Numbered from the stretch's first letter, positions 24,950 to 48,248 are shown. The stretch: DNA of 52,928 bases from an uncultured Thermoanaerobaculia bacterium (GCA_964644635.1 CAZXXL010000001.1:1-52928); one strand, 5' to 3'. Program-made: numbers and translations. The notes: generated by a model from the letters alone, not told the origin.

Positions 24950-26058
24950 TGCGATCCTTCGCCCGGCGTCTCACCGGCGTCCTTCTCCTGCTCCTGGGCG
25001 CCGCGACCGCTTTCTCACAGACCGCGCGGCGAGAGCCCCGCTGGTGGGGGCCGGTCGCGGTCGATCCCCTGCGCTTCGCCTCCCTCCCGTTGAGCTTCGA
25101 GGAGGCCGTGAGACCGGCGCCCGGCCGGTGGAAAGCGTCCTTTCCAGCGGCGTACTTCAACCTCTGGTCCGGCAGCTGGCACACCGGCATCATCCATCGC
25201 GAGTTCGGGCTCCGCGGCAAGCCGCTCAGCCCCTGGGAGCTCAGGACGCTGGAGCGGCGCCACCCGAACGACGCCATCTATCGGCTCGACGTGGAAGGAT
25301 GGGTGGGACGCCTCGCCCTCGCCCGCGGCCTGGGGCACGGCCTCGGTCTGGTGGTCGACGTGCCGTGGATCCAGATCGGCGCGCCGCGCTGGGACGCCAT
25401 CTCGGAGCGTTTCCACCAAGTGCTCGGCCTGAGCATGGGAGACCGCGGGTTCATCGCCAACGGCCAGACGCTCGTTTACATCCGCGGCCTGGATCGCGAT
25501 CGGGTCATCGAGGGTTGGCGGGAGCTTAACGGCTCCGGGCTCGGCGACGCCCGCCTGACCGTCAACGGGTCCCTCGGCCGATGGCTCGGGGGGCGCCACA
25601 CGTGGGCGCTGTCGCTGGAGGCACCCACCGGCGGCGAGGGCACGCTGCGGGGAAGCGGCGGCTGGGACCTCGGGGCACGGTGGTTCGGCAGCTGGCGGCT
25701 GAGGACGGCGACCCTTCGCCTCGCGGCCGGCTACACCCGGCTCTCCACCTCGGGAACGTTCCTGGGCGCCGAGCGGTCCGACACCTGGCACGTGCTCGGC
25801 GCCTACCTGCGTCCCGTCGGCGCCGTGAGCACGCTGATGGCGGGGCTCAGCTTTCACACCTCTCCGCTCAGCCGGTTCACCGACGCGAAGCCCGGTGATC
25901 CGTCGCTGGTCTTCGACCTCGGGTGGGGCTTCGATCTCGGCGAAGGCTATCGCCTGGAAGCCGCCGTCATCGAGGACGTCACGGCCATCGGTACGGCTCC
26001 CGATATCGTCTTCCAGGTACGGCTGGTGGTCGTACCCGGCCGCGGCGCGCGGAGATGA
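24943..26058 (+). CDS. DUF3187-like outer-membrane protein (family call tentative)
   Basis: The ATG at 24943 overlaps the PAP2-gene stop by 7 nt. Signal MVMRSFARRLTGVLLLLLGAATAFSQ. Gly/Trp/Arg-rich alternating beta-strand-like pattern. Track ORF 24736..26058 is the same frame. Confidence 0.5.
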   Translation: MVMRSFARRLTGVLLLLLGAATAFSQTARREPRWWGPVAVDPLRFASLPLSFEEAVRPAPGRWKASFPAAYFNLWSGSWHTGIIHREFGLRGKPLSPWELRTLERRHPNDAIYRLDVEGWVGRLALARGLGHGLGLVVDVPWIQIGAPRWDAISERFHQVLGLSMGDRGFIANGQTLVYIRGLDRDRVIEGWRELNGSGLGDARLTVNGSLGRWLGGRHTWALSLEAPTGGEGTLRGSGGWDLGARWFGSWRLRTATLRLAAGYTRLSTSGTFLGAERSDTWHVLGAYLRPVGAVSTLMAGLSFHTSPLSRFTDAKPGDPSLVFDLGWGFDLGEGYRLEAAVIEDVTAIGTAPDIVFQVRLVVVPGRGARR

Positions 26059-26088
26059 GGCTCCCGGGGAAAAGAACCTTCCCCCCGG

Positions 26089-26097
26089 TGATATACT
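26089..26097 (+). promoter_or_regulatory. candidate extended -10 promoter (TGATATACT)
   Basis: Lies in the AT-rich 172-nt spacer, about 135 nt upstream of the ATG at 26231. It follows a GGGGAA/TTCCCC hairpin (26066-26084) after the previous gene. Confidence 0.3.
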
Positions 26098-26230
26098 GAT
26101 CGGTAACGAAGAAAAACGAGAGGGGGGTCACGATCCGGCCTCGGGGGACAGGGTCGGCGGAGCGTCTTTTCCGGCGGTCTATCTGTCACGAGATTATTCG
26201 TCATTCATTGAGAAAGAAAGGACATGCACC

Positions 26231-27949
26231 ATGGTCAGAACCTCGAGATTCTCCCTCCTTCTCGTGTTCCTCGTCGGCCTGCCGCTGACCGCGGCGGCCG
26301 GCACAAGGAGCGGGACCACCGTCGTCCACAGGGCCGGTGTCGCCGGCTTCCAGGTGCCGGGGCGCACCTTCACCGAGGACGAGCTCCAGCCCCGCGCCGG
26401 GCTGCCGATGGATCGTTCCTTTCAGAAGTTCGGCACCGGCGACATCAGCCCGGCCAGGGTTCCGGCGGCCCACGTGCCCAGGCCGGCCACGGCCGCCGTG
26501 ATGAAGGCGCCCCCCGGAGTGCTCGGCTTCGACGGGCTGACGGTGCTCGAGCAGGGGCTCGCCAGCGGCTTCGCGGTGGAGCCGCCCGACCAGGCGCTGG
26601 CCGTAGGCCAGGGTTTCGTCCTCGAGGGCGTTAACCTGGCGATCCGGGTCTACGAGGCCGCCACCGGCGCGCCGCTGACACCGGCGGTCGACCTCAATAC
26701 CTTCTTCGGCCTTTCCGCCGACGACTTCACGTCGGACCCGAAGGCGTACTACGACGACCAGACCCAGCGCTGGTTCGTGACCATCCTCCAGATCGACCCC
26801 AACTTCACCGCGGCGCACACCATGGTCGCGGTCAGCGACACCAACGATCCGGCCGGGAGCTACACGATCTACTCGGTGGACGCCACCGATGCCGCCACCC
26901 CCGGCTGCCCCTGCTTCGGCGACCAGCCGCTGATCGGCGCCGACGCCAACGGCTTCTACATCAACACCAACCAGTTCTCGCTGATCACCGGTCGCTTCGT
27001 GGGCACCGAGATCTTCGCCCTCGACAAGGCCGCCCTCGTCGCCGGCGCGCCGACGGTCAACGAGCAGGACTTCCTGCTGACCTCCAGCGTGTTTCCGGTC
27101 TTCTACTCCCTGCAGCCGGCGACGGTCCCGCCCGGCGGAGTGTTCGAGACGGCCCAGGGTGGCACCGAGTACCTGATGGGCTCCCTCGACGACTTCAACA
27201 CCCTGACCGACCAGATCGTGGTCATGGCGCTCACCAACACCGGCTCCCTCTCCACGACGCCCGACCTGACGTTGCACCGGGTGATTCTCCCGAGCCAGGT
27301 CTACGGGCCGACGCCGGCCGCGGAGCAGCCGCTGGTGCCGGTCGCGCAGTACGACCCCGTCCTGCCCCTGGCCGCCCTGCTCAGGAGCCTCGGTTTCAAC
27401 GCCCACGAGGAGCTCGTCGACACCAACGACGACCGCATGGCGCAGGTGGTGTTCGCCGACGGCCATCTCTTCGGCGCCCTGGGTACCGTGGTGCAGACGG
27501 CCAACGGCCCGCCGCACGCCGGCATCGCCTGGTTCGCCGTGAGCCCGGGCTTCGACGGCGGCGGCCGGCTGACCGCCGCGATGGCCAACCAGGGCTACCT
27601 GGCCGTGAACGGGCAGAGCCTGACCTACCCCTCCATCGGCATGAACGCCGCCGGTCAGGGGATCATGGCCTTCACCCTCGTCGGTCCGGGCTTCGACCCG
27701 AGCGCCGCCTACGCCCCCATCGACGTCAACGGCACCGGCGCCGTGCACGTTCTCGCGCCGGGGGTCGCACCGGACGACGGATTCTCCGGGTACGAACCCT
27801 GGGGCTTCCGGGTCGGCCGCTGGGGGGACTACTCGGCAGCCGTGGCGGACGAGACGGGCGCCATCTGGGTGGCCACCGAGTACATCCCGGCCAAGCCGAG
27901 GGCGACCTTCGCCAACTGGGGAACGCGGATCAGCGTCATCACGCCGTGA
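26231..27949 (+). CDS. secreted protein of unknown function (572 aa)
   Basis: Signal MVRTSRFSLLLVFLVGLPLTAAAG. Balanced composition and protein-like low-complexity-free sequence throughout. No motif I can assign. Track ORF 25895..27949 is the same frame. Confidence 0.6.
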   Translation: MVRTSRFSLLLVFLVGLPLTAAAGTRSGTTVVHRAGVAGFQVPGRTFTEDELQPRAGLPMDRSFQKFGTGDISPARVPAAHVPRPATAAVMKAPPGVLGFDGLTVLEQGLASGFAVEPPDQALAVGQGFVLEGVNLAIRVYEAATGAPLTPAVDLNTFFGLSADDFTSDPKAYYDDQTQRWFVTILQIDPNFTAAHTMVAVSDTNDPAGSYTIYSVDATDAATPGCPCFGDQPLIGADANGFYINTNQFSLITGRFVGTEIFALDKAALVAGAPTVNEQDFLLTSSVFPVFYSLQPATVPPGGVFETAQGGTEYLMGSLDDFNTLTDQIVVMALTNTGSLSTTPDLTLHRVILPSQVYGPTPAAEQPLVPVAQYDPVLPLAALLRSLGFNAHEELVDTNDDRMAQVVFADGHLFGALGTVVQTANGPPHAGIAWFAVSPGFDGGGRLTAAMANQGYLAVNGQSLTYPSIGMNAAGQGIMAFTLVGPGFDPSAAYAPIDVNGTGAVHVLAPGVAPDDGFSGYEPWGFRVGRWGDYSAAVADETGAIWVATEYIPAKPRATFANWGTRISVITP

Positions 27950-38105: not shown

Positions 38106-38134
38106 TTGACCGGGGGCGCCGGCCCGCCTATGCT
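38106..38134 (+). promoter_or_regulatory. candidate sigma-70 promoter for the riboswitch-btuB transcript
   Basis: TTGACC (38106-38111), a 17-nt spacer, then TATGCT (38129-38134), immediately upstream of the riboswitch. Confidence 0.45.
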
Positions 38135-38135
38135 C

Positions 38136-38330
38136 GGTGCACTGGGACGGTGAAGGGAAGCCGGTGAGAATCCGGCACGGCCCCCGCCACTGTGACCGGG
38201 GACGGACCGTTCACGGGGAAACCCAGCCACTGGTCGGCGCGATCCGCGAGGGTTGACCGGCCGGGAAGGCGAACGGCTCCGGCTGATCCGGGAGTCAGGA
38301 GACCTGCCGTTCCGAAAGAAACGGGAGGTT
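38136..38330 (+). promoter_or_regulatory. cobalamin (B12) riboswitch
   Basis: Conserved core GGGAAGCCGGTGAGAATCCGGCACGGCCCCCGCCACTGTGA and B12-box AGTCAGGAGACCTGCC (38293-38308). The downstream GAAAC/GTTTC helix can sequester the GGGAGG SD of btuB. Confidence 0.85.
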
Positions 38331-38334
38331 TCGC

Positions 38335-40185
38335 ATGCCACGTCACACCCTCGTCATCGGTCTCATCCTTGCCATCGCTCTTCCGGCGGCCCCCGCTCTC
38401 GCCGGCGGGAAACCCACGAAGAAGAAAAAGAAGAAGGTCTTCGCGGGCGAGGTCACGGTGACCGCCACCGGAGAGGCGACCCCGGCCGCCGACGTGCCGG
38501 CGGCGGTGACCGTGATCGATCGCCGGCAGATGGACGACGCCCAGACGGGCTCGGTCGCCGATCTCCTGCGCCGGGCGCCCGGCCTCACCGTCATGCGCTC
38601 CGGCGACTACGGCGGCGTGACCTCGGTCTTCTCCCGGGGCACCAACTCCAACCAGACCCTGGTGCTCTTCGACGGCGTCCGCCTCAACTCCCCATACTTC
38701 GGCGGCTACGACTTCAGCCAGCTGCCCACCGCCGGCCTGTCCCGGATCGAGGTCGTCCGCGGCCCCTACTCGGCGCTGTGGGGCGCCGACGCCGTGGGCG
38801 GCGTCATCAACCTCATCCCCGGACGGGGCCGGCCCGGCCTGCACGGCTCGGTCCTCGCCGAGGGGGGCGAGGACAGCTGGGCGCGCTTCGAGGGCCGGCT
38901 GGCCTACGCCGCCGGCGGCTTCGATCTCTTCGTCTCCGGGTTCTCCCGCGGCGGCCGCGGAGCGCTGCCGAACAGCGGCTTCGACCTCGCCCAGGGACTC
39001 GCCGACCTCGGCTGGAGCTGGGCCCCCGGCAGCCGCCTGGCCCTCGTCATCCAGGACCTCGCCGCCGACACCGAGATCCCGTTCTCCGGCGCGACCCCGA
39101 CCCCGCGCCGACGCCAGTCCTCGGACCAGCTCCTGGCCGCCGTCCCGCTGACCTGGCGCGTCTCGCCGAGCTGGATCGTGCGCGCCACCGTCGCCCACGT
39201 GAGCCGCGACTTCTCCTTCCGCGACCCCGACGACCCGTTCGGCTTCACCCGCTCCGACACCAGCCCGGACTCCGACGAGGCCCGCCTGGCCAGCGCCCAC
39301 CGCCTGGGCGGCCACACGCTGACCTGGGGCGGCGCCTGGCGCCGGGACACGGTGGACGACGCCTCGAGCTTCGGGGTCAACCTCGACGGCCGCGCCGTCA
39401 CCGTGACCAGCGCGTTCGTTCAGGACATGTGGGCCGCGAGCGACTCCGTGCAGGTGCTGGCCGGAGCCCGTTGGGACGACGCCGACCGCTGGGGCTCGGA
39501 GCTCTCCCCGCGCATCGGCGTCGGCTGGTGGGCGGCCCCGGGCTGGAAGCTGCGGGCCTCCTACGGCGAGGCCTTCCGGCAGCCCTCGGTGGGCGAGCTC
39601 TACTTCCCGTTTTCGGGCAACCCCGGCCTCGACGCCGAGACCTCGCGCTCCTGGGAGCTCGGCGTCACCCGCTGGTTCGGATCACGCCTGCGCATCGACC
39701 TCGACGGCTTCTGGACCAGCCTCGACAACCTCATCGAATACGACTTCGCGACCAACACCTTCGCCAACGTCGCCACGGCGAAGATCAAGGGCGCCGAGGC
39801 GGGCGTGCTCTGGTCGGTCGCGAAGGGGCTCGACGTGCGGGCCCAGGCGACCTGGCTCGACACCCGCGGCGACGACGGCCGTTCCCTCCTCCGCCGGCCC
39901 CGCTGGAGCGGCGCCCTGACCCTGGCCGGCAGGCTGGGTCGCCGCCTGCGCCTGGACCTCACGGTCGCCGTCATCGGCCGCCGCGCCGACGTCGACCCCG
40001 TCACCTTCACCCGCTCCGCGGCGGCGGGTGCCGCCACGGCCGACCTCGCCCTCGCCTGGCGGGTGACGCCCCACGCCGACCTCACCCTGCGCGCGATCAA
40101 CCTCCTCGACCGCCGCTACCAGGAGGTCCTCGGCTACCCGGCCCCGCGGCAGCGGATCATCGGCGGCCTGCGGGCTCGGTTCTAA
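38335..40185 (+). CDS. btuB: TonB-dependent receptor, BtuB-like vitamin B12 transporter
   Basis: Signal peptide, TonB-box-like VTVTATG, plug motifs (RAPGLTVMRSG, FSRGTNSNQTLVLFDGVRLN, IEVVRGPYSALWGADAVGGVINL), and a C-terminal ...LRARF. Preceded by the B12 riboswitch. Confidence 0.88.
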   Translation: MPRHTLVIGLILAIALPAAPALAGGKPTKKKKKKVFAGEVTVTATGEATPAADVPAAVTVIDRRQMDDAQTGSVADLLRRAPGLTVMRSGDYGGVTSVFSRGTNSNQTLVLFDGVRLNSPYFGGYDFSQLPTAGLSRIEVVRGPYSALWGADAVGGVINLIPGRGRPGLHGSVLAEGGEDSWARFEGRLAYAAGGFDLFVSGFSRGGRGALPNSGFDLAQGLADLGWSWAPGSRLALVIQDLAADTEIPFSGATPTPRRRQSSDQLLAAVPLTWRVSPSWIVRATVAHVSRDFSFRDPDDPFGFTRSDTSPDSDEARLASAHRLGGHTLTWGGAWRRDTVDDASSFGVNLDGRAVTVTSAFVQDMWAASDSVQVLAGARWDDADRWGSELSPRIGVGWWAAPGWKLRASYGEAFRQPSVGELYFPFSGNPGLDAETSRSWELGVTRWFGSRLRIDLDGFWTSLDNLIEYDFATNTFANVATAKIKGAEAGVLWSVAKGLDVRAQATWLDTRGDDGRSLLRRPRWSGALTLAGRLGRRLRLDLTVAVIGRRADVDPVTFTRSAAAGAATADLALAWRVTPHADLTLRAINLLDRRYQEVLGYPAPRQRIIGGLRARF

Positions 40186-40190
40186 CCCGG

Positions 40191-41309
40191 CTAGGCCGCC
40201 TCGCGGCCCTCGGCCCGGCTGGCGAGCACCCGGGCGACCATGTACGCCACCGCGGCCAGGCCGGCCACGAGCAGGACAAAGAAGAGCACCAGCGGCCCCA
40301 GCTGGGTCTGGGCCGCGATGTGGAAGCGGGCGCGGGACGCCGCCAGGTAGAGGGCGCGGACCTGGTGCCGGGTGACCGCCATCACCGCGATGGTCCCGGT
40401 GAGCACGGCCAGCGCCAGGGTGACCTTGGCGGGGTCGGCAACCGGATCGGTTACCCGGGACAGGAGCATGAGCAGGCCGAGGCCCAGCAGGACGGCGAGG
40501 GTGAGGGGGCCGAGGGTGGTGACGCCGCCGGTCATGATCCCCTTGAGGACGTGGGACGGCAGCACCATGAGCAGGACGAAGCCGTCCGCCACCTGGAGCA
40601 CGGTCGCCCACAGGGCCCACTTCCAGGTGAAGCCGGCGATGGCGCGGTTGTGATCGACGTCCTCGCCGCGCCGGGCCTGGCGCACCGACCACCAGCAGAG
40701 CACCACGGCGGAGAAGGCGATGGAGGCGAAGACGAAGTGGAGCAGGCGCGGGAAGTACGCCGGATCACCGAGGATGATCCACGGGTTGTCGGCGACCCGC
40801 GTCCAGATCGCCGGCTGGGCGTGGATCAGGTTGACGGCGACGTGGATCATGGCGATCAGCAGAAAACTCAGCGCCGAGAACAGCAGCCAGGCCGTGCCGC
40901 CGGAGCCCTTCTTGGGAACGCCGTGGAACTTGTAGACGTAGGCGGCGTAGTAGCCGGCCATGAGCAGCCCGAGGAACGCGAACCAGATCCACCCGAGAAG
41001 AATGGTGGCGGTGTAGAAGTACTGCTGGTAGAGGACCTGGACGAAGAGCAGCGGGGCGACGCCGGTGGTGATGGTGAGCGAGATGCCGAAGGTGTTCACG
41101 CCCATCAGCCGGCAGGCGAGCACGGTGCGCGGGTCGCCGGTGCGGCCGCCGGAGAGCAGCTGGGAGACCGCCGCCAGCAGGGTCCCGCCCAGGGTCAGGT
41201 TCATGAACACCAGGTGCAGGAAGAAGGTGAAGACGAGCAGCACGTGGAAGAGCCAGAACGGGCCCGGCACCGGCATGGCGTCGGGGGCGGGGATCGGGCC
41301 GGGGTTCAT
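40191..41309 (-). CDS. polytopic membrane protein, CydA-paralogue-like partner subunit of the bd-like protein
   Basis: 372 aa with about 9-10 hydrophobic segments. The N-terminus FWLFHVLLVFTFFLHLVFMNLTLGG resembles the first helix of CydA-family proteins. ATGA overlap with the upstream gene. Confidence 0.55.
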   Translation of the reverse strand: MNPGPIPAPDAMPVPGPFWLFHVLLVFTFFLHLVFMNLTLGGTLLAAVSQLLSGGRTGDPRTVLACRLMGVNTFGISLTITTGVAPLLFVQVLYQQYFYTATILLGWIWFAFLGLLMAGYYAAYVYKFHGVPKKGSGGTAWLLFSALSFLLIAMIHVAVNLIHAQPAIWTRVADNPWIILGDPAYFPRLLHFVFASIAFSAVVLCWWSVRQARRGEDVDHNRAIAGFTWKWALWATVLQVADGFVLLMVLPSHVLKGIMTGGVTTLGPLTLAVLLGLGLLMLLSRVTDPVADPAKVTLALAVLTGTIAVMAVTRHQVRALYLAASRARFHIAAQTQLGPLVLFFVLLVAGLAAVAYMVARVLASRAEGREAA

Positions 41310-42781
41310 CGGTCACCTCCTTCGCCGGGGGTGTCGACGAGGCTGCCCAGGTACTGCGCGAGGGCGTCGGCCTCCGCGTCGGTGCCCACCAGGGGCGGCA
41401 TGAAGCTGTACTTGAGCGCGCTCATGTCCACCCGCTGGCCGGGCTTCAGCGAGCCGTAGGCGTCCCCGTTCTCCTTCAGCTCGTCGAGGACCCCGGAGAT
41501 CATCCCCGCGAGCAGATCGCGGATCGTCTCCGGGTCCTCCGCGATCTCGTCCGCGGAGGGCAGCGCCTCCCTCGCCTCCCGGAAGCTCATGTCGGGGTGG
41601 CAGGAGGCGCACTCGGCCCGGTACACGCGTGCTCCCGACCCCGGGGGCTCGTCCCTGACCACCGCGAGGATTTCCGCGAAGGTGGGCAGCTTGCGGCGGA
41701 TGCCCAGGTAGCCGTTCAGGGTGTGGCAGCTCGCGCACTCGGCCACGAAGACCTGCCGCCCCATGCCGACCGGGTCCCGAGCCGGGACCCGGGCCGCGAA
41801 GCGGGCGACCGCCAGCACCCCCCGGCGGTCGATCTCGGGGATCCGGCTCACCAGGAGGCCGTTCGAGAACATGTAGTCGTGGATCAGGAAGGGCTTGCGG
41901 CAGCCCTCGCGGAGCCGCTCGTAGCCGGCAAAAGCGGTGAAGGCCGCCAGCATGAGGACGACGGCGGGGACGACTTTGGCCGCCCGCGGCACGGCGAGCA
42001 GGAAGATCACCGCCAGAAGCAGGGTCACGGCCAGCGCCCAGAGGACGACGTGCCGGGTGACGGCCAGCATGTGCAGCCCGGCGCCGGGCCCCAGGAAGAG
42101 GCCGCGCACCTCGGGCGGCAACGCCGCCTCCCACCACCGGTACCCGCCGTAGGCGAGCAGGACCCCGGCCGCCATCCACCAGCCGAGGAAGCGCACGAGC
42201 CGGGGACGCGCCCCCGCCTCCGCCCGCAGGGCCGGGAAGACCATGAAGGCCACGGCCATCATGAGGGCGATGCCCGTGCGCAGGACGATGGCGGGCCAGT
42301 AGGTGGGGTTGAAAAAGCCGCTCCAAAACTCGTGGTCGGCCAGCCAGCCGCCCGGGGTGAGCATGAAGGTGATGATCCCGTTGATGATCACCAGCGACAT
42401 GTACGACCCGAGGACGTAGAGCCAGGCGACCATCAGGTGCGCGCCCTTGGAGATCCTGTCCCAGGTCGTGTAGTACACCAGCGCGGCCACGATCTCGAGC
42501 ACGAAGAAGACCCACTCCATCGCCCACGCCCAGACGTAGGTGTGGATCAGGGACGAGATGGCCGCGGGCGCGATCAGGCCCGCGGTCACCCAGATCCCGA
42601 CCCCGGAAATCGCGCCAAAGACCGTCGAGACCAGGATCAGCACCAGCGACGACCTCTTGGCCAGATCCCGCATGGCGGCATCGTCGCGGCGGACCGCGAG
42701 GGTCTCGGCCACCGCGATGAGGATGCCGCCGCCCACCGCGAAGTGCGAGACGATGACGTGGGTGACCGCCACCAGCGCCAT
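41306..42781 (-). CDS. cytochrome-bd (CydA)-like membrane protein fused to a C-terminal di-heme c-type cytochrome domain
   Basis: N-terminal region of about 330 aa with about 8 TM segments. THVIVSHFAVGGGILIAVAETL and EGCRKPFLIHDYMF resemble the CydA helix-1 and GRQPW regions. The C-terminus carries two CASCH heme-c motifs. Confidence 0.65.
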   Translation of the reverse strand: MALVAVTHVIVSHFAVGGGILIAVAETLAVRRDDAAMRDLAKRSSLVLILVSTVFGAISGVGIWVTAGLIAPAAISSLIHTYVWAWAMEWVFFVLEIVAALVYYTTWDRISKGAHLMVAWLYVLGSYMSLVIINGIITFMLTPGGWLADHEFWSGFFNPTYWPAIVLRTGIALMMAVAFMVFPALRAEAGARPRLVRFLGWWMAAGVLLAYGGYRWWEAALPPEVRGLFLGPGAGLHMLAVTRHVVLWALAVTLLLAVIFLLAVPRAAKVVPAVVLMLAAFTAFAGYERLREGCRKPFLIHDYMFSNGLLVSRIPEIDRRGVLAVARFAARVPARDPVGMGRQVFVAECASCHTLNGYLGIRRKLPTFAEILAVVRDEPPGSGARVYRAECASCHPDMSFREAREALPSADEIAEDPETIRDLLAGMISGVLDELKENGDAYGSLKPGQRVDMSALKYSFMPPLVGTDAEADALAQYLGSLVDTPGEGGDR

Positions 42782-42872
42782 GAGCAGCGGCCCGCCGAGA
42801 GCGTTCCACCAGACGGGGTAGTCCGTTGTGCCTCCCGTTCGTCGAGCGGATTATACGGGGGCCGGCAGGTTG

Positions 42873-42900
42873 AAAAAAGGGGAGGCCTCGTGGCCTCCCC
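42873..42900 (-). terminator. canonical rho-independent terminator after the octaheme gene
   Basis: The minus strand reads GGGGAGGCC-acga-GGCCTCCCC followed by TTTTTT, 22 nt after the stop at 42923. It is the only textbook terminator I saw in the window. Confidence 0.8.
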
Positions 42901-42922
42901 CGGTTCGCCCGATATCCTCGGG

Positions 42923-44725
42923 TCAGTTCTGGTTGAGCTGCTGCACGATGATCGCGTGGGCCTCGGTCTGGCTCTGCGCGTCGGACTGGTTCGTGTCCCA
43001 CCAGGCGCCGCCGGGGCCGTAGTACTCCATCAGCTCGTTGGCGTTTTCGACCTCGAACGTGCTGTTCCAGACGCCGATGTCGGGGGTGATGCCGAAGCCC
43101 CACACGTTGACCTTCAACGAGTGACAGCTCACCGCGCAGGAGCTCGGCATGCCGCCCTGGTCCTGGTAGGCCAGTGTCTTCTCGGGCGGAATCACCTCGA
43201 AGGTGTGGGAGTGGATGTCCCACTTGACGGCCGACTTGGCCACCTTCGGCATGTGGCACTTGATGCAGCGGGACAGCCCCACCTTGCGCTCGGGCGCGTA
43301 GGGGTGGTGCGTGTGCTGGCTCACGACCTTGGCGATGGCATCGACGTTGTTCGCGTAATCGGCCACCATCTCCTTGGTGATGTCGGCGAAGTCGCCGTGC
43401 TCCGAGTGGCACGTCAGGCAGAGGGTGTTGTTGTCCACCTCGGTCGGAATCGTCAGCCCGTCCTCGTCCAGCGTCTCCACGACCTGGTGATCGTTGGCCG
43501 TGTTCTCGTGCGGCTCGTGGCAGGTCCAGCAGTGTACCTTCTCGAAAGGATTGTTCGCATGCTTGGACGTCGTCCAGTCAAGCCACTGCTGGTGGTGCTT
43601 CTTGGAGGTCTTTCCGTCGGGCCAGCGGCCGGCCGAGTCGGTCCAGAAGCTCATGAAGTCGTCGCTCGAGCCGGGGAACCACTGCTTCTGGTTGGTCTCG
43701 TCGTACGGGAAGCCGTGCAGCTTGTCCGGAACCGACTTTGGCCGCAGGTGGCACTGGCCGCAGACCTCGTCGGCCGTGTCCTCGGGCAGGTCCGCTGGGT
43801 TGACGATCTTGGTCGGATCGCCGCCGCCGAGGATGTGGGCGGAGCCCGGCCCGTGGCAGTTCTCGCAGCCGATGTTGGTCAGGTCCTTGTTGCCGTCGTG
43901 GTCGAAGTCCCAGTAGCTGGGATCACCCGGCTGAACGAGGACCGCCGGGTAGAGGTCGGCCCGCCATTCGCCGTTGGCATCCTGGGTGATCTTCTTCACG
44001 CCCGTGGCGTGGCAGCCGATGCAGTTCTTGGAGTAGTCGCCGCCGCTGTTGGCCGCGAGGTCGGCAGCGCTCGTGCCCTGGTGGAACTTGGGCTCGTTGT
44101 TCTCGTCGTACCAGTGGTCGCCGTCGTAGACCACGTAGCCGTGGGTGGCGAGGTTGTACTGGATCGGACTGATGTAGTTGCCCATGGAAAGGCCGTTGGG
44201 GGTCCCGGTGACCGGGACACGGACCACGTAGCGCTGCTTCCAGCCGGCGCCGCCCTGGGCCGCCACCACCGGCATCTTGAGGTCGCCGATCGTGATGTAG
44301 TAGGTGTTCCCCTCGTGGGAGAGGATGGGGGCGTTGGGCTTGAACTTGTCGAAGGCCGACGAGATCTGGTTGAAGTCGAGCCCCTCGTCGAAGTCATTGA
44401 TCCCGTTCTGGTTGTAGTCGTTGACCATCGTGTCCGGCGTCGGAATTCGAATCTTCTTGCGGTGCAGGGTGTCCCGGAACCCGGCCTTGTCCTGGTGGCA
44501 GGCGATGCAGAACTCCGAGCCCACGTAGACGCCCTGCTCGAGCTGTTGGGCGGTGTACATGGACTGGAGCCGCTGCACCCCCTCGGTGACGATGCTCGCG
44601 GCCCCGGGCCGCGACAGTCTCACCGCGCGGACCCGGTGGCTGCTGAGCAGCTGGGGCCCGCCGGCCGAGACGGCCGTGGCGATGCCGAGGGCCACGACGG
44701 TTGAAAGAATTGCGACACGCCTCAT
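42923..44725 (-). CDS. secreted multiheme c-type cytochrome: 7 CxxCH plus one CxxxCH (putative octaheme, NrfA/octaheme-reductase-like)
   Basis: ATG at 44725 with AAGGAGG SD. Signal MRRVAILSTVVALGIATAVSAGG, with no lipobox. Heme motifs CIACH, CIGCH, CENCHGPGSAH, CGQCH, CWTCH, CLTCH, CIKCHMPK, plus CAVSCH (43121-43138). Confidence 0.85.
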   Translation of the reverse strand: MRRVAILSTVVALGIATAVSAGGPQLLSSHRVRAVRLSRPGAASIVTEGVQRLQSMYTAQQLEQGVYVGSEFCIACHQDKAGFRDTLHRKKIRIPTPDTMVNDYNQNGINDFDEGLDFNQISSAFDKFKPNAPILSHEGNTYYITIGDLKMPVVAAQGGAGWKQRYVVRVPVTGTPNGLSMGNYISPIQYNLATHGYVVYDGDHWYDENNEPKFHQGTSAADLAANSGGDYSKNCIGCHATGVKKITQDANGEWRADLYPAVLVQPGDPSYWDFDHDGNKDLTNIGCENCHGPGSAHILGGGDPTKIVNPADLPEDTADEVCGQCHLRPKSVPDKLHGFPYDETNQKQWFPGSSDDFMSFWTDSAGRWPDGKTSKKHHQQWLDWTTSKHANNPFEKVHCWTCHEPHENTANDHQVVETLDEDGLTIPTEVDNNTLCLTCHSEHGDFADITKEMVADYANNVDAIAKVVSQHTHHPYAPERKVGLSRCIKCHMPKVAKSAVKWDIHSHTFEVIPPEKTLAYQDQGGMPSSCAVSCHSLKVNVWGFGITPDIGVWNSTFEVENANELMEYYGPGGAWWDTNQSDAQSQTEAHAIIVQQLNQN

Positions 44726-44753
44726 CTTGACCTCCTTTTCCCCCCGCGGGGTG

Positions 44754-45605
44754 TTACTCGAAAAGCCTGGGGTCACGGTTCGAGCCGTGGATCCCCTGGT
44801 GACATCTCTGGCACGCCCGGTAGCGCGCCTGGCTCAGGTCGTGGAATGCCGGCACGTCGGCATGGCACTCGAGGCACAGGTCGCTCATGCTGCGGCGCGT
44901 GAGTTGACGCGGGTTCATCGATCCGTGGGGCTCGTGGCAGGTGACGCACCCGTCCACCTCGCGCGGCGGGTGGGGATAGACGAAGGGACCGGCCTTCTCC
45001 GTGTGGCACCTGATGCAGACGCCGCCGTTGGACAGCATCTTCAGGCGGCCGCGCTCGGTCTGCCCGTGGGGATCGTGGCACTGGGTACAGGCGAAGGGGC
45101 GGTGCGCCCCCTCGCGATGAGCGTAGGGGAGGTTGAACGCCGCCGCCTCGGACCTGTGGCAGCTGCCGCAGAGCTTGGCCGGCTCGGCCCGCAGCATGTG
45201 GGCGACGGTCGATTTGGCGTGCCCCGGCTGGTGGCAGTCCAGGCATCCCACGCCGTTACGGACGTGGGCCGGCGTGGTCAGCTCGAGACCCGCCCGGCGA
45301 TCGGCGTGGCACTGCACACAGACCTTGCTCGTCGGCTTGCGGACGATGTTGTCGGTCGAGGGGTCCTCGACGTGGGCCGCCGCCGGGCCGTGGCAGGCGA
45401 CGCAGGCGCGGTCCACGATCTTCTTGGACACCTTGGCCATGGCCCGCCCGTGGGGCCCGGCGAGGAAGTTCGCCGCCACCTCGTCGTGGCAGGTGGCGCA
45501 GGTCTCGGTGGTGACCGGCTCATCGGCCCGGGCGGGGGGAGCCGCGACCAGGACCGCCAGGCCGACCAGGGATCCAACCAGCATCGTCGTCATCCGCCGC
45601 ATCAT
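44754..45605 (-). CDS. periplasmic decaheme c-type cytochrome, MtrA/DmsE-like
   Basis: 283 aa. Signal MMRRMTTMLVGSLVGLAVLVAAPPARA. Exactly ten CxxCH motifs (CATCH CVACH CVQCH CLDCH CGSCH CTQCH CIRCH CVTCH CLECH CQRCH). GPFVYPHPP...CVTCHEPHGS pattern. The start overlaps the porin stop (TGATG). Track ORF 44754..46283 is the same frame, over-extended. Confidence 0.85.
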   Translation of the reverse strand: MMRRMTTMLVGSLVGLAVLVAAPPARADEPVTTETCATCHDEVAANFLAGPHGRAMAKVSKKIVDRACVACHGPAAAHVEDPSTDNIVRKPTSKVCVQCHADRRAGLELTTPAHVRNGVGCLDCHQPGHAKSTVAHMLRAEPAKLCGSCHRSEAAAFNLPYAHREGAHRPFACTQCHDPHGQTERGRLKMLSNGGVCIRCHTEKAGPFVYPHPPREVDGCVTCHEPHGSMNPRQLTRRSMSDLCLECHADVPAFHDLSQARYRACQRCHQGIHGSNRDPRLFE

Positions 45606-47458
45606 CAGAAGCTCCAGTGCAGGGCGAGGCCGTACCGGGCGACGCTGAAGTCGTCCAGCCGGGCCCGTTGCTCGTCGTACGACCAGTACTGTCCGAAAAG
45701 GCCCGCCATCAGCCGGCCGACGATCCTGAAATCGAAGCGGACGGCGGCGTTCCAGGCGTCCACCGGCCAGGTCTCGCCCTGGTCCGTCAGCCACGCCAGG
45801 CGCCACGTGAGCCGCCGCGAGTCGTTGCCCAGGCGGGCGAAGGCCGAGAACCGGCGCACGGAGGTGTCGTAGCGCGAGGTGCCGCTTCCGCCGGTGGGCA
45901 GGATCAGTCCGGTGTCGGTGGAAAGGTCGAGGATCGACGCGTCCACCCCGACGGTCCGCCCGCCCTTCGGCGACGACCACAGGAGCGCGGCGCCGACGGC
46001 CGTCGAGTTGGTCGAGAGATCGGCGATGCTGCGCGGGTTGTCCGTGCCCTCGTACCGCCCGTGCACGTTGAGGACCCAGGCCCTGCCGAGGTGGGAGCTG
46101 AGCCTGACGGTCACCCGGTTGACGGTGTCCGGGTCGGTCCGGAACACGTAATCCTGGAACGAGCCGTGCTCGTACTCGACGCTTCCCGCAAGTCGCCGGC
46201 CGAGATTGATCGAGGCGCCCGCCACCGCCCCGCCGGAGTCGCGGCTGACGTCGACGCGGTCCCCGTCCGCGGTCAGGCGCCACTCGACGTCGCGGCTCGC
46301 CGCGAAGCCGCCGCCCCAGACCGCCCAGCGGTCCGTCCGGTACTCGATCTCCAGCCGGCCCGTGGTGTCGGTGGTGTCGAAGCGGCCCGTATCGTCGATC
46401 GGGGCGCTCAGCTCGAGGCCGGCACCGGTGGGATTGAAGGCCTTGAGGAGACGTTCCCCGAGCAGGCTGGAATCGGAGCTGGCGTCACGGTAGTCGGCCG
46501 AGAAGCGAAGCCTCCAGCCCCGGCCGAGGCGCAGGGCCAGCCGGTAGGCGCCGGCCAGGGTGTCCGTGGTCGCGGAGCCCACCAGGTCGTCCATGAACTG
46601 GATGGTCCCGATCCTGCCCTCGTCGATGGCGAAGCTCTGCCACCCGGCGCCGGTCGCGTCCAGGTCGGCCGAGCTCCAGAGGATGGACAGAACCGTCTCC
46701 ACCCGTCCCCTGGCATAGCTCGCGGTGACCCGGCCCGAGGGGACGTCCTGGCTCTCGTGGACCGTGGTCCCGACATCGGTGAGCAGATCCGGGTCGGTGG
46801 GATCCAGGGACGCCCCGCCGGCCGGCGACCAGCGGTTCCGCCGGTCGTAGCTCGCGTAGGTCGCCTCGACGTCGAGCACCACCGGGAGGGTCCTGGTCAC
46901 CAGCCGCAGGCTTCCCTCGTCCATCGTCTCGTCGAGGGCGACCCGCAGCGGGTAGAGATTGTTGAGGCCCAAGAAAGGCCGAAACACGGTGCCGTCGCGC
47001 TCGACGTGGCGCACGTTCAGGATCAGCTTCGCCGCGCTCCAGCCGGTCCAGCGCACCTCGCCGCCCCAGCGGGTGATGTTCCAGCGGTCCGTCCGGCCGC
47101 CGAGGTCGGACTCCGAAAGCCCGAAGAAGGTGTTCCGCCGGTCGTAGGTCACGGCCACCGACCAGTCGTCCCCCGGCGCGAAGCTCAGGCGACCGTGCTC
47201 GGTCGGCTCGGCCTGACCGAAGCCCCACGCCTGGAGATGAAAGCGCGGCCGCTCTCCGGTTTTCAGCGCCAGGTCCAGGCTCTCGAGCACGAAGCCCTGA
47301 TCCAGCGCCTGCTGGCTGCGGAAGCTGTTTTCGCTCCCGGCCGCGTTCTGCCACACGTAGCCGACACCGATCTCCCCGTGCCAGGTCTGTGCGGCAACGG
47401 GCGACACCGCGAGCCCCGCCACCAGGGCGGCGGCACCCAGGTTCCTCAGACGACCCAT
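45605..47458 (-). CDS. outer-membrane beta-barrel protein, MtrB/PioB-like (family tentative)
   Basis: ATG at 47458. Signal MGRLRNLGAAALVAGLAVSPVAAQ. 617 aa of alternating amphipathic beta-strand pattern rich in Y/W/R/D/G, with a terminal ...GLALHWSF. Translationally coupled to a decaheme gene. Confidence 0.65.
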   Translation of the reverse strand: MGRLRNLGAAALVAGLAVSPVAAQTWHGEIGVGYVWQNAAGSENSFRSQQALDQGFVLESLDLALKTGERPRFHLQAWGFGQAEPTEHGRLSFAPGDDWSVAVTYDRRNTFFGLSESDLGGRTDRWNITRWGGEVRWTGWSAAKLILNVRHVERDGTVFRPFLGLNNLYPLRVALDETMDEGSLRLVTRTLPVVLDVEATYASYDRRNRWSPAGGASLDPTDPDLLTDVGTTVHESQDVPSGRVTASYARGRVETVLSILWSSADLDATGAGWQSFAIDEGRIGTIQFMDDLVGSATTDTLAGAYRLALRLGRGWRLRFSADYRDASSDSSLLGERLLKAFNPTGAGLELSAPIDDTGRFDTTDTTGRLEIEYRTDRWAVWGGGFAASRDVEWRLTADGDRVDVSRDSGGAVAGASINLGRRLAGSVEYEHGSFQDYVFRTDPDTVNRVTVRLSSHLGRAWVLNVHGRYEGTDNPRSIADLSTNSTAVGAALLWSSPKGGRTVGVDASILDLSTDTGLILPTGGSGTSRYDTSVRRFSAFARLGNDSRRLTWRLAWLTDQGETWPVDAWNAAVRFDFRIVGRLMAGLFGQYWSYDEQRARLDDFSVARYGLALHWSF

Positions 47459-47617
47459 GAGCCCGATCCCTCCCCCCGACGGGCGCACCGCCCCGCGTGG
47501 CGCGCCTCGAGATTCTGAGACGATGTCGTAACCATCATCCTTGCGCATATGTTCACAAGCGCGGGGATGCGAAAGAATTTTCCGCACGTGAGCGTTTGCC
47601 GGGTCGTTCATGCGTTC

Positions 47618-47718: not shown

Positions 47719-47747
47719 TTGACACGATCCCGTTCCTTCCCTAATAT
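47719..47747 (+). promoter_or_regulatory. candidate sigma-70 promoter of fur
   Basis: TTGACA (47719-47724), a 17-nt spacer, then TAATAT (47742-47747). The fur ATG is at 47784. Confidence 0.45.
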
Positions 47748-47753
47748 TGTGTT

Positions 47754-47772
47754 GAGACGATGAAAATGAGAC
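47754..47772. promoter_or_regulatory. Fur-box-like site 2 (possible fur autoregulation)
   Basis: GAGACGATGAAAATGAGAC matches 11 of 19 positions of GATAATGATAATCATTATC. It overlaps the predicted fur transcription start and contains a GAGAC direct repeat. Confidence 0.25.
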
Positions 47773-47783
47773 TGGATTAGCCT

Positions 47784-48248
47784 ATGACGTCATTATCGCA
47801 ACGCGCCCAGAAGCTCTTCATCCAGTACCTCAGGGAGAACAACCTGAAGGTCACGCAGGAGCGGCTCGCCCTGCTGGAGGAGATCTTCTCCACCAACGAG
47901 CATCTCGACGCCGACGATCTCCTGGCGCGGATGAAGGTGAAGAGAAAGAAGGTCTCCCGCGCCACCGTCTACCGCACGCTCGACCTCCTCGTGCAGTGCG
48001 GGCTGGTGCGCAAGAGCCGGCTCGGCCAGGAGCATTACTTCTACGAGAAGGTCCAGCCGGGCAAGCACCACGACCACATGGTGTGCACCCATTGCGGGAA
48101 GGTCATGGAGTTCTGGGACCCCGAGGTCGACCAGCGGATACGTCAGCTCTGCCAGGAGCGAAGCTTCCGCCCGTCCTTCTACTCGATCCAGATCCAGGGC
48201 CTGTGCGCCGACTGTCAGAAGCTGGAGCAGGAATCCACGTTCCTGTGA
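47784..48248 (+). CDS. fur: Fur-family metalloregulator
   Basis: 154 aa. wHTH RATVYRTLDLLVQCGLV. Metal sites HHDHMVCTHCGKVMEF and CADC. GC is lower than in the flanking genes. Confidence 0.9.
   Translation: MTSLSQRAQKLFIQYLRENNLKVTQERLALLEEIFSTNEHLDADDLLARMKVKRKKVSRATVYRTLDLLVQCGLVRKSRLGQEHYFYEKVQPGKHHDHMVCTHCGKVMEFWDPEVDQRIRQLCQERSFRPSFYSIQIQGLCADCQKLEQESTFL

Follow-up and report, generated by a model that had tools for sequence, protein, structure and literature searches.

A 52,928-nucleotide stretch of DNA from an uncultured Thermoanaerobaculia bacterium (GCA_964644635.1 CAZXXL010000001.1:1-52928; this whole stretch is called the window) carries five consecutive minus-strand genes at positions 40191-47458, which encode an outer-membrane porin, a decaheme and an octaheme c-type cytochrome, and two proteins resembling the CydA subunit of cytochrome bd, here named bdA and bdB (together bdAB). 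An earlier note on this DNA had proposed that the five make up one electron conduit from the inner membrane to the cell surface, in which the bd-like pair would exchange electrons with the quinone pool. All five open reading frames (ORFs) were confirmed at their coordinates. The window has a G+C content of 66-74%, and its closest database relatives are metagenome-assembled genomes (MAGs) of Thermoanaerobaculia (Acidobacteriota); loci of relatives are given L numbers.

Read in the direction of transcription, the first gene (45605..47458, minus strand, as for all five) encodes a 617-amino-acid (aa) protein with a signal peptide and the C-terminus HWSF, assigned as an MtrB-like outer-membrane porin that would form a large beta-barrel. 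The second gene (44754..45605) encodes a 283-aa periplasmic c-type cytochrome of MtrA/DmsE-like type with exactly 10 CxxCH motifs, and its ATG shares one base with the TGA of the porin gene (TGATG). The third (42923..44725) encodes a 600-aa octaheme c-type cytochrome with seven CxxCH motifs and one CAVSCH (CX3CH). Beyond a predicted intrinsic terminator and a second start region lie bdA (41306..42781), encoding an OR-C1a-type bd-like subunit of 491 aa with about eight transmembrane (TM) segments and two CASCH motifs in a C-terminal di-heme c domain, and bdB (40191..41309), encoding an OR-C1b-type paralogue of 372 aa with neither heme c nor channel glutamates; bdB is coupled to bdA through an ATGA overlap. 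All five genes exist as the earlier note had described them. The c-type cytochrome genes of the 52.9-kb window number three only.

On the porin, the Pfam model MtrB_PioB (PF11854) gave a partial match of 18 bits (E 0.0011), which does not reach the gathering cut-off of 23, and comparison of the porin profile with Protein Data Bank (PDB) sequences returned no match; distant relatives found with the same profile score 24-26 bits on PF11854 (P0320, P0336). An AlphaFold2 (AF2) model built with 16 homologues is an all-beta barrel (pLDDT 84.3, pTM 0.76), and its top PDB fold match is MtrB (6r2q_B; E 4.6e-14, TM-scores 0.67/0.64), with 22-strand TonB-dependent transporters reaching a TM-score of about 0.45. 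Counted from the DSSP string of the model rather than from coordinates, the strand elements number 28, including two of only 4-6 residues, and the modelled barrel of about 26 strands would be wide enough for a decaheme; the earlier note had regarded fewer than 20 strands as too few to hold a multiheme protein. The porin family is small: a search of 1.84 billion representatives yielded 48 clusters at E<=1e-30.

The decaheme, which has a signal peptide and the N-terminus MMRRMTTMLVGSLVGLAVLVAAPPARA, scored 181.0 bits on TIGR03508 (DmsE family; cut-off 192.2 not reached), with positions 2-257 of the 258 in the profile aligned, and 17 bits, also under cut-off, on Cytochrom_NNT. Against the MtrA chain 6r2q_A it gave an E value of 2.5e-25 over residues 30-277, and on this comparison its homology to MtrA is clear despite the TIGR03508 score. 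Of 51 metagenome loci, 50 have the decaheme gene next after that of the porin. The assignment of the two products as an MtrB-like porin with an MtrA-like decaheme, as the earlier note had it, is thus supported by sequence comparison and by the porin model, with the family-profile searches recovering homology but not the curated cut-offs.

As in MtrCAB of Shewanella (6R2Q) and in MtoAB/PioAB, the porin fold is nearest to MtrB and the decaheme is an MtrA homologue of about 280 aa, and as in MtrCAB the porin and decaheme genes are adjacent, with translational coupling, and the unit includes a gene for a third multiheme cytochrome. Unlike in MtrCAB, the porin is about 11% identical to MtrB and falls under the Pfam cut-off, the gene order is porin-decaheme-cytochrome, and the third product has eight heme sites, one of them CX3CH, and carries no lipoprotein signal. 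Set beside the MtrCAB complex, the conduit in the window is known from its genes and from the porin fold match.

The Cys/Cys/His of the octaheme CAVSCH site were invariant among 28 homologues, which share at least eight further His residues, invariant or nearly so, sufficient for bis-His ligation. No conserved N-terminal Cys was found in the octaheme when the 28 homologues were aligned, and the protein is therefore not a lipoprotein. Its local similarities were weak (NrfA, E 2.5e-4, a partial match; OcwA, 6qvm, a surface cytochrome of Thermincola, E 8.8e-4), some homologues gave a faint match to Pfam PF22113 (MtrC/MtrF II-IV), and the AF2 model of the octaheme (pLDDT 74) had no significant match among PDB folds (best E 1.8). 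Assignment as an NrfA or octaheme reductase was rejected, as all its motifs are CxxCH or CX3CH, with no CxxCK, and the NrfA match is weak and partial; assignment as an MtrC/OmcA-type surface decaheme lipoprotein was likewise rejected, given the missing N-terminal Cys and only eight heme sites. The octaheme could sit either in the periplasm or at the cell surface. Type II secretion genes (secretin, pseudopilins) flank the porin and cytochrome genes in a Thermoanaerobaculum MAG (L132, 1-4921) and in a close relative (L135, 17278-19980), an arrangement which would fit export of the octaheme to the surface.

In bdA, Pfam Cyt_bd_oxida_I was matched with 45.6 bits over residues 1-181 only, corresponding to profile positions 6-192 of 418, and matches to Pfam Cytochrome_CBB3 and Cytochrom_C were also obtained. 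A profile of 15 bdA homologues aligned with helices 1-4 of Geobacillus CydA (5doq_A), with the heme-ligand His and the two channel Glu in register. The motifs THVIVSHF and EWVFFVLE (Glu-x6-Glu) and a YY pair are invariant across these 15 sequences, among which no invariant His was found between TM4 and the heme c domain. A crude hydropathy scan gave about eight TM segments, with short loops only between TM5 and TM8, followed by a 206-aa tail which holds the two CASCH motifs, and on this topology the c-heme domain is predicted to face the periplasm. The NCBIfam CydA models scored 18-20 bits, against cut-offs near 1000. For bdB there was no Pfam match, and its likeness to CydA, which the earlier note had read from the sequence, was borne out by profile but not by BLASTP: bdA against bdB was not significant by BLASTP (E 0.11), whereas hhalign of the two profiles gave 96.3% probability (E 1.9e-9, 275 columns) and the bdB profile matched Geobacillus CydA 5doq_A with an E value of 6.9e-7. 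The TM1 His of bdB (H32) is invariant and the two channel glutamates are missing, and bdB is a CydA paralogue recognisable by profile comparison only.

These properties fit a family, OR-C1a/OR-C1b, defined within the cytochrome bd superfamily by Murali, Gennis and Hemp in 2021 (bioRxiv 10.1101/2021.01.16.426971). As described there, OR-C1a has eight TM segments and a C-terminal heme c, occurs in paired 'a'/'b' CydA paralogues, and retains H19, E99 and E107, with H186, M393, E445 and the quinol site missing; cytochrome c is the likely electron donor of OR-C1, and Acidobacteria are among the host phyla. The window pair belongs here by its core, its missing ligands, its TM and heme c arrangement and its adjacent paralogue, bdA having the eight TM segments, the C-terminal heme c, equivalents of H19, E99 and E107, six residues between the glutamates and no equivalents of H186 and M393, and bdB being the adjoining paralogue that lacks the glutamates. 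The pair shares with canonical CydAB (E. coli; Geobacillus 5DOQ) helices 1-4 of bdA, the heme-ligand His and the two proton-channel Glu, and differs from it in having no Q-loop, b558 ligands or CydB, in having a CydA paralogue as second subunit, and in the predicted entry of electrons into OR-C1a via a covalently bound heme c. From other OR-C1 it is set apart by two c hemes in bdA, against up to eight in Desulfovibrionia, by an ACG in place of the start ATG, and by the porin-cytochrome genes as neighbours, found in the window sub-lineage only. At Desulfuromonadales-type loci, OR-C1a itself has eight hemes, and members of OR-C1 are widely distributed among anaerobes rich in cytochromes. That OR-C1 enzymes reduce O2 and are fed by cytochrome c is a prediction made from sequence; beyond the family paper, no biochemical study of any OR-C enzyme was found in the literature searched, and a Deferribacter paper treats the bd genes there as ordinary quinol oxidases.

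That the five genes follow one another on one strand was confirmed, but they are not obviously one operon. Directly 3' of the octaheme stop lies a predicted intrinsic terminator (42878..42901, minus strand), with a 10-bp stem of which 8 pairs are GC, then TTTTTT (minimum free energy -25.3 kcal/mol, z -3.8), and an equivalent hairpin and T-run is found at the same position in L001, L082, L138 and L139. Within the 141 nt from the octaheme stop to the annotated bdA ATG, a bdAB start region (42824..42855, minus strand) could be read by inspection, comprising a -10-like TATAAT (42850-42855) and a Shine-Dalgarno sequence (SD), GGGAGG (42831-42836); a formal promoter scan called no site 5' of bdA, the -35 being poor. 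With terminator, TATAAT and SD all placed between the octaheme gene and bdA, the porin and cytochrome genes and bdAB are most likely separate transcription units.

The homologues of bdA start 15 codons upstream of the annotated start, with MDYP (ATG of MDYPIW), where the window has ACG (42824-42826). This ACG is 4 nt past the SD, and the next in-frame ATG (42781), 15 codons downstream, has no good SD. In L139, whose bdA is 84% identical, the same place reads CATATAAT...GGGAGGGAGA-ATG-GAT-TAC-CCC. The remainder of the bdA ORF in the window is intact, and the ACG could be a non-canonical initiation codon, a start-codon mutation or a sequencing error.

The earlier note had named in advance the regular occurrence of the bd-like genes away from the porin and cytochrome genes as evidence against its model, and this is what the two synteny scans returned. 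In the bdA-based scan, with one genome per GTDB species, 80 loci carried bdA; bdB adjoins it in 78 and the remaining two loci are truncated. The porin, decaheme and octaheme genes lie beside bdAB in one locus, L001, and the pair occurs without them in the other 79. In most of the 80 there is no multiheme cytochrome within 10 kb. The porin-based scan covered metagenomes and gave 51 loci, in all of which the gene order porin, decaheme, octaheme was kept where the contig was long enough, and judged by this order the three genes form a conserved cassette. Among 17 independent cassette loci with at least 1.5 kb of downstream sequence (L082 and L123, being the same sequence, were counted once), bdAB was missing from 16. 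Four neighbours are conserved in the main cassette clade: an aldo-keto reductase, an EEP-family nuclease/phosphatase, a protein resembling amylases, and a polytopic membrane protein. On these identities all four were rejected as redox partners. The closest porin relatives of the window, L134 (85%) and L135 (82%), stand in other genomic contexts.

A small number of relatives do share the window's arrangement. The order fur, cassette, bdAB, btuB is common to the window, L001 and L133; L139, which has the closest bdA relative (84%), shows the octaheme C-terminus, the terminator, bdAB and btuB on a contig that begins inside the octaheme gene, with fur and the remaining cassette out of view; and L082 has fur, the cassette and bdAB, with no match to btuB. 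In L138 (GCA_013152925.1, 7128-7650), fur, the cassette and the terminator are kept, followed by a 59-codon N-terminal stump of bdA and then btuB, with bdB gone, which from this remnant is a natural deletion of bdAB with the cassette retained. The cassette and bdAB are inherited independently: with the two found apart in nearly all genomes surveyed and bdAB deleted in L138, the obligatory link proposed between them fails. Within the cassette itself, identities form a mosaic, as the window matches L134 at 85/84% in porin/decaheme and 64% in the octaheme, and L001 at 51/70% and 72%, respectively, a pattern that points to internal recombination or to sequence exchange among paralogous cassettes.

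We therefore favour, with a probability of roughly 0.65, the interpretation that the region holds two independent respiratory modules which have become neighbours in one Thermoanaerobaculia sub-lineage. The first, of porin, decaheme and octaheme, would be an Mtr-type conduit in which the decaheme sits inside the barrel of about 26 strands and electrons cross the outer membrane, the octaheme being a conserved partner of the conduit, probably placed at one of the two ends. Electrons would most likely pass outward to Fe(III)/Mn(IV) oxides, in analogy to Thermoanaerobaculum, a genus that has this cassette. The second, bdA-bdB, has kept the O2-reducing four-helix core (His, two Glu) and lost the quinol loop and the b558 ligands; it would be fed by soluble c-type cytochromes through its own periplasmic di-heme c domain and would most likely reduce O2, for protection or for micro-oxic respiration. 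At most the two modules may share a periplasmic cytochrome pool, and they would not be one machine. The cassette was either inserted between fur and bdAB or lost from that position in relatives. On this evidence the two modules adjoin in one lineage only, and at least one relative does without the arrangement.

Several observations weigh against a complete separation of the two. At least five genomes distinct at species level (window, L139, L001, L133, L082) keep the cassette beside bdAB in the same orientation, at 49-85% protein identity, and an adjacency retained over this distance allows that some selective or regulatory link may exist. On a neighbour-joining (NJ) tree of bdA, which has no support values, L082 falls outside the clade of the window, L001 and L133, and given this position the modules could have come together twice independently. 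Terminators may permit some read-through, and the two transcription units are predicted from sequence. The porin and the decaheme both lie just under their curated family cut-offs, and neither is a formal member. Finally, no other quinol dehydrogenase was shown for this organism, of whose genome 52.9 kb is covered.

This last point bears on the model of the earlier note, in which the bd-like pair is the inner-membrane quinol/quinone module that passes electrons through its c hemes to the decaheme and porin, or takes them up in reverse for Fe(II) oxidation. The pair would fill the role taken elsewhere by CymA (NapC/NirT), CbcL or ImcH, and, as the note had observed, no NapC/NirT, CymA, CbcL or ImcH-type protein was seen in the 52.9-kb window; the same strand, the 141-nt spacing, the predicted periplasmic c-heme domain and the retained adjacency would also suit such a module. 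Nevertheless we consider the model very unlikely, as OR-C1a lacks the Q-loop and the b558 ligands (H186, M393), with the Pfam match of bdA ending at position 192 of 418, the modules are apart in almost all genomes surveyed, the cassette has outlived the bdAB deletion in L138, and a terminator and a promoter-like element stand between the units. Relatives moreover encode conventional candidates for the quinol step. In L041 (12572-19348) and L028 (2256-8905), bdAB is followed by a fusion of an 11-heme cytochrome with cytochrome b561, which on sequence is a CbcL-type architecture, and by a Rieske protein, a cytochrome b and a NapC/NirT-like 18-heme protein; these genes are a candidate chain from quinol through cytochrome c to OR-C1, and quinol:cytochrome c modules beside bdAB are what a cytochrome-c-dependent terminal enzyme would need. 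In L134 (3384-5395), genes for a membrane-anchored cytochrome with 11 hemes and for a cytochrome b561 (PF01292, 37 bits) lie 5 kb upstream of the cassette, and their products are a candidate for its inner-membrane partner that is missing from the window. A single machine built from both units would mean a new part for the bd superfamily to play in extracellular electron transfer; what was observed points instead to two known kinds of module side by side.

A link of the cassette to metal reduction comes from the Thermoanaerobaculum MAG, in which all three genes recur in unchanged order (34/47/53% identity), with type II secretion genes beside them and no bd-like pair. According to Flieder et al. 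in 2021 (PMC8528874), multiheme-cytochrome/beta-barrel clusters of Ca. Sulfomarinibacter and Thermoanaerobaculum aquaticum are syntenic, and are proposed as the metal-oxide reductase of T. aquaticum. Those clusters belong to the same bacterial class as the window, and through the shared cassette of the Thermoanaerobaculum MAG they appear to be of the same type. Mtr-like clusters of peat Acidobacteriota are described in a 2026 preprint (bioRxiv 10.64898/2026.05.27.727921). Unlike the window, neither the Thermoanaerobaculia nor the peat clusters are said in these reports to have a bd-like neighbour. Both kinds of module have thus already been described from sequence (Murali et al. 2021; Flieder et al. 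2021), and what the window adds is that a small, sub-threshold porin family ties uncultured marine/hydrothermal Thermoanaerobaculia to the cassette of the metal-reducing genus Thermoanaerobaculum.

Electrons could also run inward, from extracellular Fe(II), Mn(II), minerals or partner cells through the conduit and periplasmic hemes to OR-C1 and O2, in a lithotrophic or detoxifying chain. Mtr/Mto-type conduits such as MtoAB are able to run either way, OR-C1 is predicted to depend on cytochrome c and keeps its O2-site residues, and the adjacency is conserved in a sub-lineage; each of these would favour such a chain. Porin-cytochrome complexes and bd-like oxidases have been proposed jointly in Mn(II) oxidation by Ca. 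Manganitrophus (PMC9040806). The independent distribution of the modules, the loss of bdAB in L138 and the apparently separate transcription units all argue against it, as does the fact that Fe(III)/Mn(IV) reduction is the only reported phenotype of the cassette-bearing genus (PMC8528874); in the same paper the related family of Ca. Sulfomarinibacter is described with strict-anaerobe features, O2 reduction being suggested as a defence. On balance we regard the inward chain as unlikely. Its fuller version, in which the decaheme or octaheme hands electrons to the OR-C1a di-heme domain for delivery to O2 and the adjoining Fur-type regulator controls both units, appears improbable to a similar degree; if true, an uncharacterised branch of the bd superfamily would here serve a minimal pathway from the outside to oxygen.

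That regulator is encoded divergently from the porin gene (47784..48248, plus strand; Pfam FUR 107 bits). The NCBIfam models did not separate Fur from PerR, giving 74.8 and 76.8 bits, respectively, both under cut-off, and the protein has a Glu in GKVMEF, at a position which we take to be Glu in Fur and Asp in PerR. Beside the gene, GTCTCA-N8-GTCTCA (47753..47772, minus strand) resembles a Fur box in sequence; it is conserved in about 25 relatives, is the sole match in the window, with 0 mismatches, and lies between a promoter-like site, TTGACA-17-TAATAT at 47719-47747, and the fur start. The 10-mer CATCGTCTCA from this operator has two copies in 52.9 kb, against 0.1 expected, both in the fur-porin intergenic region, and the second (47516..47525, minus strand), a possible regulator half-site, is about 58 nt upstream of the porin start.

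The earlier note had taken the divergent fur gene as a sign of iron control. A link to fur is real, but in most of the relatives surveyed fur adjoins the bd-like pair directly. A homologue of 72-88% identity stands divergent, about 250-530 bp upstream of bdA, in 24 of the 80 loci, and in a 25th, L001, the cassette is placed between fur and bdA. Fur control of the cassette is possible from the sequence. If the region were an island of the Fur regulon, the link would be regulatory and not mechanistic: iron-responsive genes would gather near fur, and to acquire iron the cell might also use the conduit to dissolve Fe(III) minerals. The recurrence of the operator 10-mer upstream of the porin would favour this, as would a ferritin gene upstream in L136, the Glu in GKVMEF, and the fact that, apart from the window, fur adjoins the cassette in seven or more of the loci sampled (L001, L081, L082, L123, L133, L136 and L138, with L123 having the L082 sequence). 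We nonetheless find it about as unlikely as the inward chain, given that the porin-proximal GTCTCA is present in L081, L136 and L082 but missing in L001, L133 and L138, fur is missing upstream in 34 of the 36 metagenome cassette loci with upstream sequence, the NCBIfam models do not tell Fur from PerR here, and the adjoining TonB-dependent receptor gene answers to cobalamin, not iron. In the two-module interpretation, the conserved fur pairing is one of three handles on the role and electron source of OR-C1, along with the bdAB deletion in L138 and the CbcL/Rieske neighbours in L041/L028, and what keeps the region of interest is the OR-C1 family itself, as known from sequence, together with a neighbourhood of fur, cassette and OR-C1 that recurs.

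In the fur-bdA intergenic regions of relatives without the cassette (L002-L022; for example L016 at about 9950), a TTGA-N6-TCAA-like palindrome was noticed by eye some 40 nt 5' of the -10-like element of bdA, and is possibly a candidate Crp/Fnr-type site; by eye, it was not seen in the window.

On the other side of the region, the TonB-dependent receptor gene (38335-40185, plus strand) converges on bdB and is directly preceded by a cobalamin riboswitch (RF00174, 92.9 bits; 38131-38325, plus strand). The receptor is on this account of BtuB type, B12-regulated and outside any iron or electron-transfer unit, and was rejected as an iron link. Farther away, a 703-aa ORF (25838-27949, plus strand) has a coding-like codon bias (GC3 0.88) and no Pfam match at E<=1e-5. 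The other window ORFs scanned were housekeeping or regulatory, for example truA, uppS, lpxC, uvrA and sigma-54 two-component systems.

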